DNA from: a virus
Taxonomy: Duplodnaviria > Heunggongvirae > Uroviricota > Caudoviricetes
Length of the DNA stretch: 45,442 nt
IMG/VR virus record: IMGVR_UViG_2534681703_000014
Location: 1 to 45,442 of that record
Reading direction: 5' to 3' (one strand)
Shown: one piece after another, positions 14,256-17,076 of the stretch
Numbering within the stretch: the first letter of the stretch is position 1
How the letters are laid out: each line of letters begins with the position of its first letter
Position numbers and translations under genes: made by a program
The notes under the pieces: generated by a model
Seen by the model: only the letters and a program-made list of their open reading frames with translations
What the model was told of the DNA's origin: nothing
Database searches by the model: none

Positions 14256-14633
14256 ATGACTGAACGCATAGAATTTGTTTTGCCTTACCCGCCAACGGTG
14301 AACACTTACTGGCGACGTCGTGGCAGCACATATTTTGTATCAAAAGCCGGTGAGCGTTATCGCCGTGATGTGGCGCTTATTGTTCGCCAGCAGCGGCTGA
14401 AATTAAACCTGTCCGGAAGGCTGGCGATAAAGGTGATTGCAGAGCCACCGGATAAGCGCCGCCGCGACCTGGACAATATCCTGAAGGCACCACTGGATGC
14501 GCTGACGCATGCCGGACTACTTATAGACGACGAGCAGTTTGATGAAATCAATATTGTGCGCGGTCAGCTCGTTCCTGGTGGGCGGCTGGGCGTGAAGATT
14601 TGCGAAATCAGAGGCGATGGTAATGGGGCGTGA
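14256..14633 (+). CDS. rusA: Holliday junction resolvase RusA
   Basis: RRRDLDN motif and overall similarity to E. coli RusA by recollection; 125 aa. Confidence 0.8.
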   Translation: MTERIEFVLPYPPTVNTYWRRRGSTYFVSKAGERYRRDVALIVRQQRLKLNLSGRLAIKVIAEPPDKRRRDLDNILKAPLDALTHAGLLIDDEQFDEINIVRGQLVPGGRLGVKICEIRGDGNGA

Positions 14634-14973
14634 TATGTATGAGGTTTTAGATCGCTGGGGGGCATGGGCTGCAGCAGAAAATAGCGGTGTCGATTGGCAA
14701 CCGATAGCAGCGGGCTTCAAGGGGCTTTTGCCACATGGCAAAAAGTCACGTCTCCAGTGTGATGATGATGAAGGCATCATGATAGACGGTTGTGTGGCTC
14801 GGTTGCGAAAGTATAAACCAGAGGAATATGAGCTGCTCATAGCTCACTTTGTTATTGGTGTTTCTCTACGCTCAATCGCGAAGAAACGCAGGTGCTCAGA
14901 TGGAACTATAAGAAAGGAGCTGCAAACTGCATTAGGCTTTATTGATGGATGTATATGCTTGATTCTATCATAA
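14617..14973 (+). CDS. Late-gene antiterminator Q (phage 82/QuuD-like)
   Basis: VLDRWGAW...IAAGFKGL...SRLQCDDD...CSDGTIRKELQ closely resembles the QuuD-type Q sequence I recall; overlaps the rusA 3' end. Confidence 0.75.
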   Translation: MVMGRDMYEVLDRWGAWAAAENSGVDWQPIAAGFKGLLPHGKKSRLQCDDDEGIMIDGCVARLRKYKPEEYELLIAHFVIGVSLRSIAKKRRCSDGTIRKELQTALGFIDGCICLILS

Positions 14974-14986
14974 GTTATGACTGTTA

Positions 14987-15373
14987 CTACTCGTTTGCTT
15001 GAGCTTTCGATTCGGCGTCAGATAAAGCATCAATACGAATATTTATGTTTTTTAATAGCTTATTGTCTAGATCGATAAGACATTGGTTGTAGTGCGCAAT
15101 TTGGTCTGGTGTTAGGTTAGGGTTGGCCAGGCAGTTCGTGATGAATTTTCTGGCCGTTTTTATTTCCCTTTTCATTCTTACATCATTAAGCGTAGGCAAA
15201 CCTATGTAAGCGATAAGAAGAATTACCACATGAGATAAGCCGACAGCAGCTCCAGGCGCCAATGATTTGAAGAAGGCTAATTGAGGAAGCCAGTCAAAAA
15301 GGAAATTCAATCCCGCAGTGATAAGGGTGGTAAACCATGCCTGCATTGCCAGGTAGGATTTAGTGTTCGCCAT
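14987..15373 (-). CDS. Unknown membrane protein (128 aa, about 2 predicted TM helices); third gene of antisense 3-gene cassette
   Basis: Hydrophobic segments WFTTLITAGLNFLF and AVGLSHVVILLIAYIGL; start codon directly abuts the stop of the upstream gene; AT-rich. Confidence 0.5.
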   Translation of the reverse strand: MANTKSYLAMQAWFTTLITAGLNFLFDWLPQLAFFKSLAPGAAVGLSHVVILLIAYIGLPTLNDVRMKREIKTARKFITNCLANPNLTPDQIAHYNQCLIDLDNKLLKNINIRIDALSDAESKAQANE

Positions 15374-15619
15374 TCACCTTCCTGCACTTGCTTCGTTGCG
15401 AGTTTTGAGTTCGCGTAGCAGTAGCGCCAACTCTTCTGCGTCATTTTCGTTTCTAACGCTGACTTTCCTTTTAGCGGTTCTGCCTTCAGGATCGGTGTAG
15501 GTTAGTTCAATATACGCATTCGGCTTTACCCAAACCAAGAACCTAAGCACAGCATATCTGACCGTCGCTGCGACAGCCATGAATACAGTGATGTAAAGCA
15601 TAATGCTTAGGATTGACAT
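15374..15619 (-). CDS. Unknown small membrane protein (81 aa, N-terminal TM); second gene of cassette
   Basis: N-terminal hydrophobic ILSIMLYITVFMAVAATV; 3-nt gap to upstream gene stop. Confidence 0.5.
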   Translation of the reverse strand: MSILSIMLYITVFMAVAATVRYAVLRFLVWVKPNAYIELTYTDPEGRTAKRKVSVRNENDAEELALLLRELKTRNEASAGR

Positions 15620-15622
15620 GAT

Positions 15623-16534
15623 TTAAAGTAGTTTCCTATCTGCCGCCGCTCTGTGGCGTATAACCTTAGTAATACTATAGCGTGGTTTAGACAGCGCGCC
15701 ATTTGTTTCTTTTGTTGTTTCTGTCAGTTCTACAACAAAAAGATCACCCTTACAGAATGCTGCTTGGTTGTGTTCAACCCGTTCAAGAAAAGCCTCATCT
15801 TTCATAGATGCACTAACTTCTTCGCCATTTGGCAGGATGATATCCCAGCTTTTGCCTTGCTTGAATCGAACATTAGCAAAATGTACATTAGCTTGGCGTG
15901 TCGTTACGTGCGTTTTCTCGACAAAGGTGGATTTTGCAGTTTTAAAACTTACTGCTTCAGCTTGCGTCACCCTGACTACCTTATGCTTCTGCTGTGAAAC
16001 TGAGAACGTGGATGGTTTTTCAGTCTGCAGGGGTTTATAGATTAATTTATCCAGTTCTTTTCGGATGATTGGACTGGTTATTAATTTTTGAATGTCGTTA
16101 CTGCATTTAACCTTCTCACCATCCACTTCGATTTCTGCTGTATCTTTTTGTTCATCGACGACAATGGAGCTGATTTTACGCCCTTTGAGCCATTCGATTA
16201 TCCCGAGTACGCCACCTGCGGCAACTCCACCACCTGCAACGAGGCCAAGGGCGTTAATAGTTTTTATGCTCCCCATCACAGCAACAAGCAAAGTAAATGA
16301 ACCTTCTTTTGTTGCCTTGATGTTGACTTTCGGCTCTGCTGTTTCGCCATTAATTATTTTTTCGGCGTGTTCAATCAGGGCACTAAGAGAGGTTAAGGCT
16401 TCGCCTAATGTTTTCGCGTCGATCTGATTATCTGCGTATGCCTCTCCACCGTAGGCAATTTCGATTTCTGTTATTGGCATGTTTTCGAGTTGCTGCGTCA
16501 TCAAAAGCATCCTTTGCGCAAGAGAAATAGCCAC
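15623..16534 (-). CDS. Unknown 303-aa protein with central Gly-rich hydrophobic segment and Lys-rich C-terminal domain; first gene of cassette
   Basis: Long ORF; hydrophobic FTLLVAVMGSIKTINALGLVAGGGVAAGGVLGIIEWL near residues 80-115; start uncertain (GTG 16534, ATG 16510 or 16480); no family recognised. Confidence 0.55.
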   Translation of the reverse strand: MAISLAQRMLLMTQQLENMPITEIEIAYGGEAYADNQIDAKTLGEALTSLSALIEHAEKIINGETAEPKVNIKATKEGSFTLLVAVMGSIKTINALGLVAGGGVAAGGVLGIIEWLKGRKISSIVVDEQKDTAEIEVDGEKVKCSNDIQKLITSPIIRKELDKLIYKPLQTEKPSTFSVSQQKHKVVRVTQAEAVSFKTAKSTFVEKTHVTTRQANVHFANVRFKQGKSWDIILPNGEEVSASMKDEAFLERVEHNQAAFCKGDLFVVELTETTKETNGALSKPRYSITKVIRHRAAADRKLL

Positions 16535-16539
16535 AGGAT

Positions 16540-16622
16540 ACAGATAATTATGAAAAAATCACTAACGCGTACGCAAAAACTATCTTAATCTGTTAAGAGT
16601 GGTCGCTTCGCCACACAACTTA
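16540..16622 (+). promoter_or_regulatory. Candidate late promoter (pR'-like) feeding a short terminated leader
   Basis: GATAAT -10-like hexamer near 16570 about 50 nt upstream of an intrinsic terminator, an arrangement reminiscent of lambda pR'/6S RNA/tR'; no convincing -35. Confidence 0.3.
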
Positions 16623-16647
16623 AACCCGCATCAAGCGGGTTTTTTTG
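16623..16647 (+). terminator. Rho-independent terminator (tR'-like) upstream of the tRNA cluster
   Basis: Hairpin CCCGCA-TCAA-GCGGG followed by TTTTTTTT. Confidence 0.6.
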
Positions 16648-16766
16648 TGTCACTTATCTCGGATAGACATGGTGAATGCGCTGGTGGAGGAGATAAGGGT
16701 GATTTTTAACCAGGTGATTTTTGAATGCTTGCAACATTGATTTCGTAACGTTATTATCCTGCGCCC

Positions 16767-16842
16767 GGCCCTTTAGCTCAGTGGTGAGAGCGAGCGACTC
16801 ATAATCGCCAGGTCGCTGGTTCAAATCCAGCAAGGGCCACCA
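16767..16842 (+). tRNA. tRNA with CAU anticodon, resembling E. coli tRNA-Ile2 (ileX-like); Met cannot be excluded
   Basis: Manual cloverleaf: acceptor GGCCCTT/AAGGGCC, D-arm GCTC..GAGC, anticodon loop CTCATAA, T-arm GCTGG-TTCAAAT-CCAGC, 3' ACCA. Confidence 0.85.
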
Positions 16843-16843
16843 A

Positions 16844-16920
16844 CCGCCACTAGCTCATCAGGAAAGAGCGTCAACCCTTTAAGTTGAGTGTGCGAGGTTC
16901 GAGTCCCCGGTGGCGGTCCA
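16844..16920 (+). tRNA. Atypical tRNA-like gene, apparent anticodon UUU (Lys) with C33 and U73
   Basis: Acceptor CCGCCAC/GTGGCGG, D-arm GCTC..GAGC, anticodon stem TCAAC/GTTGA with loop CCTTTAA, T-loop TTCGAGT with one stem mismatch, 3' TCCA. Confidence 0.5.
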
Positions 16921-16922
16921 GT

Positions 16923-16998
<76 letters not shown>

Positions 16999-17001
16999 TA
17001 T

Positions 17002-17076
<75 letters not shown>

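Follow-up and report, generated by a model that had tools for sequence, protein, structure and literature searches.

A 45,442-nucleotide (nt) stretch of tailed-phage DNA from an E. coli prophage (Caudoviricetes; positions 1 to 45,442 of IMG/VR record IMGVR_UViG_2534681703_000014), referred to here as the window, carries three minus-strand genes, A, B and C, between its Q gene and its lysis genes (Table 1). Here we describe this cassette and its relationship to gp29/gp30, the abortive infection system of the mycobacteriophage MichelleMyBell. An earlier note made from the sequence of the window had described three tightly coupled open reading frames (ORFs) in AT-rich DNA, convergent to Q and upstream of a terminator, tRNAs and the lysis genes, and our analysis bears out this layout. 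Only 3 nt separate the stop codon of A from the start of B, the TGA stop of B abuts the ATG of C (0 nt), and the stop codons of the convergent Q and C genes are 13 nt apart. GC content is 0.40-0.44 across the cassette and 0.52-0.55 in the left, Q-side flank.

The length given earlier for A, 303 amino acids (aa), is correct for the ORF read from its GTG codon, but a shorter product is indicated by comparison with related genes. The start of all A homologues aligns with M12 of this ORF, a conserved AAAGGA sequence lies 8 nt 5' of the M12 ATG, and the GTG-initiated upstream extension is frameshifted in the Salmonella copy. Together, these features place the true start almost certainly at the M12 ATG (window position 16501), giving a predicted protein of 292 aa rather than 303. 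When the genes are compared with their counterparts in Citrobacter, Salmonella and Plesiomonas, the ratio of nonsynonymous to synonymous substitution rates (dN/dS) amounts to 0.03-0.06 (A), 0.06-0.10 (B) and 0.08-0.10 (C), with dS near saturation. These low values reflect strong purifying selection and thus show that none of the three is a chance ORF. Gene B is left unannotated by the PGAP pipeline in RefSeq E. coli genomes (L001, 6475-6723; L065, 15975-16223), despite its conservation across genera, its translational coupling and the purifying selection on it.

Table 1 Features of the cassette and its surroundings in the window
Feature	Position	Strand	Basis or remark
Gene A as first read, GTG start, 303 aa	16534..15623	-	ORF list
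Gene A with start moved to ATG (M12), 292 aa, gp29-like	15623..16501	-	Starts of homologues and Shine-Dalgarno sequence
Gene B, 81 aa, N-terminal transmembrane segment	15374..15619	-	ORF list, hydropathy, phrog_27630 (E 8e-57)
Gene C, 128 aa, two N-terminal hydrophobic segments	14987..15373	-	ORF list, hydropathy, phrog_26468 (E 7e-89)
5' regulatory region of the cassette	16502..16621	-	Conserved with the cassette; candidate promoter
Shine-Dalgarno sequence AAAGGA	16515-16510	-	
-10-like hexamer CATAAT	16552-16547	-	
-35-like hexamer TTGCGT	16576-16571	-	18-nt spacer to the -10-like hexamer
TTATGA direct repeat	14975-14980 and 16548-16553		Brackets the segment missing in Combat2C1-type prophages (BLAST)
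Q gene	14617-14973	+	Convergent with the cassette
Intrinsic terminator hairpin, AAACCCGCATCAAGCGGGTTT and T-run	16622..16642	+	Directly beyond the 5' region of the cassette
Four tRNAs	16767-17076		Downstream in phage orientation
Holin and endolysin genes	from 17761		Lysis region

Protein A belongs to a large family that has been filed under several names. With an E of 3.3e-53, it matches PDLC05015, the PADLOC model of the candidate defense family PDC-S42, from one end to the other (residues 22-299, aligned with positions 4-294 of the 302-position profile) and, more weakly, the two sister models. It also scores 225.3 bits, against a cutoff of 60, with NCBIfam NF053583, named "LAPAL motif-containing putative phage structural protein", although the LAPAL string is absent from the E. 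coli A sequence, and it falls in phrog_3243 (E 3e-94). A sub-threshold likeness to Pfam DUF7946 pairs the N-terminal ~90 residues with the first half of that domain in 38 of 75 family members. An exhaustive HMMER search returned 1,665 A-family clusters (50% identity) at E <= 1e-3, nearly all of 280-320 aa and aligned over their full length. A profile scan of genome contigs gave 3 loci, a homologue search with a profile of the C-terminal domain was unproductive (2 matches), and a literature search for PDC-S42, the LAPAL motif, DUF7946 and the protein accessions returned nothing.

The AlphaFold2 model of A (predicted local distance difference test score, pLDDT, 80.8; predicted template modeling score, pTM, 0.73) comprises an N-terminal alpha/beta domain, a Gly/Ala/Ser-rich helical hairpin at residues ~77-105, modeled with low confidence inside a globular domain, and a C-terminal barrel at ~190-290. 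The predicted barrel has the order b1-b2-b3-helix-b4-b5, resembles an oligonucleotide/oligosaccharide-binding (OB) fold and ends in an RHR motif; in the family alignment, W219 is invariant and the RHR tail is conserved. The hairpin corresponds to what the earlier note had called a central Gly-rich hydrophobic segment. It is indeed Gly/Ala-rich, but its hydrophobicity is only borderline, with a median maximum KD19 of 1.58 across the family. Since the segment is borderline and is modeled inside a globular domain, the membrane anchoring that had been ascribed to A is not established. A sequence-profile search of the PDB with A found no related solved structure, a structure search found no solved structure matching A over its whole length, and a Foldseek search of BFVD returned uncharacterised phage proteins only.

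A tblastn search with A against ~50,000 isolated phage genomes gave a single match, in a 14-kb Vinavirales Vibrio prophage whose A homologue carries the depositor's note "MMB_gp29_gp30__gp29". MichelleMyBell gp29 is a protein of 310 aa, and the 3' end of its gene is overlapped by that of gp30, a protein of 67 aa with two hydrophobic segments. Alignment of the A2 profile (the 75-member A family) with gp29 by hhalign gave a probability of 98.7% and an E of 3.3e-16 over 270 of ~300 columns (A 7-287, gp29 10-297), compared with E 0.1-0.87 for 20 shuffles and the reversed gp29 as controls. The A-family hidden Markov model (HMM) scored 79.7 bits with gp29, and pairwise BLASTP of E. coli A with gp29 gave E 5e-7. 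Motifs common to both proteins are GSF, (G/R)W, DExFLxRV, D(L/I)F and V..HR. By these alignments, A is a full-length homologue of gp29, and the labels PDC-S42, NF053583 and gp29 denote one family. No family had been recognised for any of the three proteins in the earlier note; A has four such affiliations, counting phrog_3243, and B and C each fall in a PHROG. As reported, the MichelleMyBell prophage lowers the efficiency of plating of phage Tweety by 4-5 logs (PMC8549241), the mechanism is abortive infection in which adsorption and injection proceed (PMC6426606), and the system consists of the toxic gp29 and the putative membrane protein gp30 (PMC11856565). DefenseFinder calls MMB_gp29_gp30 in 23 INPHARED phages.

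The partner proteins are small. B has a transmembrane (TM) segment at its N-terminus, followed by a conserved (F/K)P-x3-(I/V)-x-L-T-x-x-D-x-x-G region of strand-turn-strand type and a charged helix, and its tail is presumed to be cytoplasmic. C has a weak (~9-33) and a strong (~37-60) hydrophobic segment and then a charged, helical C-terminal tail of ~70 aa. Because basic residues directly follow the last TM segment, the positive-inside rule suggests that this tail is probably cytoplasmic. Hydropathy agrees here with the earlier description of one N-terminal TM segment in B and about two in C. With distant homologues included, B and C match no Pfam, NCBIfam or PADLOC family and only PHROGs of unknown function, and a comparison with holins, antiholins and spanins found no lysis family in Pfam, annotated PHROGs or NCBIfam. 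A match of one Morganella B protein to the "4TM effector" model of the cyclic-oligonucleotide-based antiphage signaling system (CBASS; E 2.7e-4) was judged to be compositional.

The three genes travel together. In 38 of 40 IMG/VR loci, down to 28% A identity, two genes of ~80 aa and ~127 aa come next after A, recognised as B and C by their HMMs or by size and position. The A-B-C order recurs in Enterobacter, Morganella, Serratia, Citrobacter, Salmonella, Plesiomonas, Gilliamella and Pseudomonas, as well as in the Vinavirales Vibrio prophage, where A identity is 26%. In the latter (Vibrio phage 10N.286.45.F8_PE001; L069, 7004-8608), an A of 285 aa, a B-like protein of 83 aa and a C-like protein of 161 aa are encoded beside the integrase. 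Since this is a non-tailed, PM2-like temperate element, the module crosses viral realms. A, B and C thus make up an operon that is both conserved and translationally coupled. At 24-25% identity, the A homologues farthest from the window protein (L021, L061 and L064) lack B and C, and in L021 a DUF4160 protein (1439-1786) stands in their place. As the partners change or vanish at this distance, A is the invariant core, with clade-specific membrane partners: gp30 in actinobacterial phages and B plus C in the proteobacterial clade. Another of these distant homologues, not the one in L021, is encoded ~770 nt 5' of a gene for a cI-like S24 repressor.

Placement of the cassette was analyzed in 34 non-redundant neighborhoods and in individual loci. 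Between an antiterminator gene and the lysis genes, the arrangement seen in the window, it lies antisense at ~15 loci with three antiterminator families. In Plesiomonas and Pseudomonas it is found directly 3' of a cI-type repressor gene, on the same strand as cI, which is the rexAB position. In Orbaceae phages and one metagenomic contig it is directly 5' of, and co-oriented with, genes for a holin and a transglycosylase. Two Mu-like loci (L054, 2883-4397; L057, 6001-7531) carry it in the head module, on the same strand, between Mu F/G and protease I/major head gpT. Further copies lie at the end of a P2-like prophage in Serratia, in VapE/resolvase integrative islands of Enterobacter hormaechei and beside the integrase of the Vibrio element. 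The cassette moves among the cargo slots of unrelated temperate phages and islands, and it uses at least five distinct ones. In the related E. coli E66 prophage, which has the same cassette, the nin-like region, upstream of DUF968, holds further accessory cargo, namely an antisense pair of PP2C phosphatase and Ser/Thr kinase genes and hokD (L001, 1422-3484); this cargo is not in the corresponding place of the window.

Among 5,426 complete E. coli genomes, 37 have an intact cassette, and the 38 genomes with an identical Q comprise these 37 and one with a scar. In that strain, TUM9757, the equivalent of window ~15032-16503 has been lost across a microhomology of 8 nt, AAAGCATC (L068, 4389-4415), which leaves the last 45 nt of C together with the promoter and 5' end of A, including its start. 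Combat2C1-type prophages, whose Q is 95% identical, lack window positions 14981-16553. In Combat2C1 itself (L067, 4346-5863), Q is followed by the 5' region of the cassette only, with the junction at TTATGA, and further on the same slot holds a scabin-like ADP-ribosyltransferase and a subtilase-family AB5 toxin B subunit. In PPompW phages, Q leads straight to the hairpin and the tRNAs. With three related prophage types lacking the cassette, the slot is variable and the cassette is dispensable. This is what the earlier note had expected of the Q-to-lysis interval as a site of variable cargo: behind a Q that is identical or 95% identical, other prophages have no cargo at all, a deletion scar or the toxin pair. 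The synteny comparison that it had proposed likewise found the cassette absent from most related phages.

The ~125 nt 5' of the A ATG are conserved among the E. coli, Citrobacter and Salmonella copies in the Q slot and the Plesiomonas copy in the cI slot. Retention of this sequence in the cI slot indicates that it belongs to the module. About 110 bp of it also stand directly after Q in the cassette-less Combat2C1, a finding upon which we dropped the view of it as purely the promoter of the cassette. The simplest reconciliation would be that the sequence behind Combat2C1 Q is a deletion scar, the direction of events being unproven. The adjoining hairpin is part of the phage backbone, a tR'-like or early-operon terminator, and is 90-95% identical in ~850 E. 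coli genomes and in PPompW phages, both without the cassette. It is overlapped by a 36-aa "antiterminator" ORF called by PGAP (16599-16709, plus strand), probably a remnant or a spurious call, around which ~80 bp share 90-95% identity with ~850 E. coli genomes and PPompW/Stx2a phages. A promoter-like sequence, TTGATG-18-TATCAT, lies inside the 3' end of Q (14942-14971, plus strand). If this were the late promoter PR', the late transcript would run antisense through the whole cassette as far as the hairpin, which is inference only. A second candidate promoter, TTGCAA-17-TATTAT (16729-16757), is located just 5' of the tRNAs. The first of these tRNAs (16767-16842, plus strand) has the anticodon CAT and is assigned to Met by ARAGORN and, for an identical gene, to Ile (lysidine-type Ile2) by PGAP.

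We consider it probable, from homology and genomic context, that the cassette is a prophage defense module, a three-gene proteobacterial relative of the MichelleMyBell gp29/gp30 abortive infection system; our confidence in any specific mechanism is lower. It is a self-contained accessory module (moron), and most likely one that is expressed in the lysogen. The earlier note had guessed at a superinfection-exclusion or abortive-infection module, a guess now backed by the full-length homology of A to the validated gp29 and by the use of moron slots, including the one 3' of cI. Its description of the cassette as an undescribed system no longer applies, given the kinship with gp29/gp30 and PDC-S42; the novelty is the three-gene layout with membrane partners that are unlike gp30 and had gone unnoticed.

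In the mechanism that we propose, A would act as a cytoplasmic, toxic effector and sensor. Its C-terminal OB-like domain, with W219 and the RHR tail, may recognise a phage cue, either nucleic acid or protein, and its Gly/Ala-rich hydrophobic hairpin may act at the inner membrane. B and C, as small inner-membrane proteins with their charged C-termini toward the cytoplasm, would tether and restrain A in the uninfected lysogen, as gp30 is thought to do for gp29, and they might also aid membrane permeabilization after the triggering of A. This control would be lifted when a heterotypic phage infects, and the cell would be arrested or killed before progeny are formed. Upon induction of the resident prophage, rightward phage transcription, late or early, could run antisense through the cassette and silence it.

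Several observations weigh against this assignment. The profiles of B (A8) and C (A9) each reach an hhalign probability of only 0.4% with gp30, and lacking such homology the membrane half of the system is only analogous to gp30. A and gp29 share ~21% identity, a distance at which the function of A may have drifted. Validation of gp29-type defense concerns the Mycobacterium system only, and the proteobacterial members are known from their genes. The co-oriented copies directly 5' of a holin gene, in Orbaceae phages and one metagenomic locus, and the copies inside the Mu-like head operon would also fit a function expressed late. The TTGCGT/CATAAT pair was not called by a sigma-70 consensus scan and its hexamers differ among copies, so that the promoter is a candidate. 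If the sequence at 14942-14971 is PR', antisense transcription from it could be constitutive and work against the expression of the cassette in lysogens. How A and B/C would share their tasks, and what would trigger A, is purely inferential.

Among other explanations, the least improbable, although still unlikely, is superinfection exclusion at the envelope, in which B and C, with A peripheral, would block DNA entry or an early membrane step without killing the cell, as P22 SieA, T4 Imm and HK97 gp15 do. Two of the three proteins are indeed small inner-membrane proteins, slots typical of lysogen-expressed morons are used, including the one 3' of cI, and the genes of Cluster N mycobacteriophage prophages also include some for injection blockers, for example Charlie gp32 (PMC6426606). 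MichelleMyBell, however, is described in PMC6426606 and PMC11856565 as acting by abortive infection, with adsorption and injection proceeding and gp29 toxic, and injection blockers known so far consist of one small membrane protein or lipoprotein each, not of a 292-aa cytoplasmic OB-fold protein with two partners. We regard as improbable that the cassette is an addiction or host-fitness module, acting like a toxin-antitoxin pair or in lysogenic conversion, so as to stabilize the prophage or change the physiology of the envelope, with no direct anti-phage role. The reported toxicity of the gp29 homologue (PMC11856565) would suit such a role, as would the tight link to a single E. coli Q allele (37 intact cassettes and one scar among 38 genomes) and the presence of host-directed toxins in the same slot. 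Yet the only family member put to the test gave 4-5 logs of phage protection (PMC8549241), PADLOC lists the family as candidate defense, and recurrent deletions argue against effective addiction.

A role in lysis timing, with B and C holin- or antiholin-like and A a cytoplasmic regulator of holin triggering, appears very improbable. B and C resemble holins in size, TM count and charged C-termini, lysozyme genes occur in 10 of the 34 neighborhoods and holin genes in ~9, and in L017, L047, L050 and L019 the cassette lies directly 5' of, and co-oriented with, Holin_2-3 and SLT genes. Against this stand the absence of matches to holin families, the antisense orientation to the lysis genes in the ~15 Q-slot loci, and the copies that have no lysis genes near them, namely those behind cI, within the Mu head module, on integrative islands of Enterobacter that lack lysis genes and beside the Vinavirales integrase; moreover, most related phages lack the cassette, and its deletion leaves the lysis genes intact. 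That A is a virion structural protein, as the name of NF053583 implies, is hardly credible, even with two Mu-like prophages that carry the cassette between Mu F/G and the protease/major head genes. Most loci are outside structural operons and antisense to them, others are directly after cI or on islands without virion genes, and nearly all related phages do without the cassette. A is always accompanied by the two membrane proteins, is homologous to a defense toxin and, in E. coli, has no LAPAL motif. With such non-structural surroundings and a defense toxin as homologue, A seems misnamed as a "structural protein". Genomic context and kinship with gp29 together argue against the lysis-timing, addiction or fitness, and structural explanations.

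For the mechanism of A, the protease-activated pore-forming effector EACC1 (PF19953) offers a further comparison. A hydrophobic helix with a glycine patch at its center, flanked by beta elements, is common to the two, and in sub-threshold Pfam matches A ~71-140 aligns with that C-terminal portion of the EACC1 profile which is toxic (15.5-15.6 bits, gathering score 23.6). Such weak matches were obtained for 8 of the 24 close members of the A family and for 3 of the 75 diverse ones. EACC1 differs in being a pore-former freed by proteolysis, whereas A is three times longer and has no caspase-like protease next to it: the lists of cassette neighborhoods contain no peptidase, and the neighbors in the window are Q, B, C and the tRNAs. 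We keep the likeness as a lead only, since it is sub-threshold, clade-restricted and without an adjacent protease. It raises the idea, which we consider doubtful, that proteins of the gp29/PDC-S42 family are abortive-infection effectors which form pores by themselves, independently of a protease. The glycine-patch hydrophobic hairpin would then be an EACC1-like element that can insert into membranes and is kept latent in a beta-sheet, the OB-fold would sense phage nucleic acid or protein, and B and C would serve as membrane receptor and safety catch. Were this so, MichelleMyBell gp29/gp30, PDC-S42 and EACC1 would form one mechanistic class, spanning tailed, Mu-like and non-tailed (Vinavirales) temperate phages and at least two phyla.

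The assignment of the cassette to the gp29 family has several consequences. MichelleMyBell gp29/gp30 is validated only in Mycobacterium, and an E. coli version is genetically tractable for studies of sensing and killing. The finding corrects a misleading annotation, NF053583, for a family of more than 1,600 clusters at 50% identity. In Proteobacteria, it shows the family to come as an operon of three genes, strictly conserved, in which the two mini-membrane partners had not been recognised and one is unannotated in RefSeq. Among the cargo that lambdoid prophages carry between Q and the lysis genes, it adds another defense module. If the function is not conserved, what would remain is a conserved accessory operon with its role unassigned.

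Among known systems, the logic of the cassette parallels that of RexAB (PMC12894663). In systems of this type (lambda RexAB, P. putida RexABpp, Sbash gp30/31 and CarolAnn gp44/43), a cytoplasmic protein of ~280-300 aa is likewise combined with one or more small membrane proteins and encoded by a prophage. The RexAB place directly 3' of cI is taken only by the related Plesiomonas and Pseudomonas cassettes, whereas the window cassette lies between Q and the lysis genes. Homology to RexA and RexB was tested and rejected, and the cassette has no DNA-binding protein of RexA fold. BLASTP of C with RexB gave E 1.6, and B and C, with one and two TM segments respectively, are unlike the four-TM RexB. 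PADLOC PDC-S42 is matched by A end to end, but it is only an in-silico candidate, whereas the unit in the window is a conserved three-gene operon; the "S" series of PDC presumably denotes single-gene systems. NF053583 and phrog_3243, to which A belongs, and DUF7946, which it resembles, are uncharacterised bins. The closest counterpart is MichelleMyBell gp29/gp30. Both have a core of ~300 aa that is homologous over its full length; this takes in a hydrophobic segment rich in small residues as well as the C-terminal barrel, in which DExFLxRV and HR are found. In both, the core gene is followed or overlapped by one or more genes for small TM proteins, and both occupy a variable accessory region of a temperate phage, near lysis and immunity genes. 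They differ in host, mycobacterial (Cluster N) for MichelleMyBell and proteobacterial for the cassette, and in their partners: a single 67-aa, two-TM gp30 in the former, and in the latter an 81-aa B with one TM segment and a 128-aa C with two TM segments and a long helical tail, neither similar to gp30.

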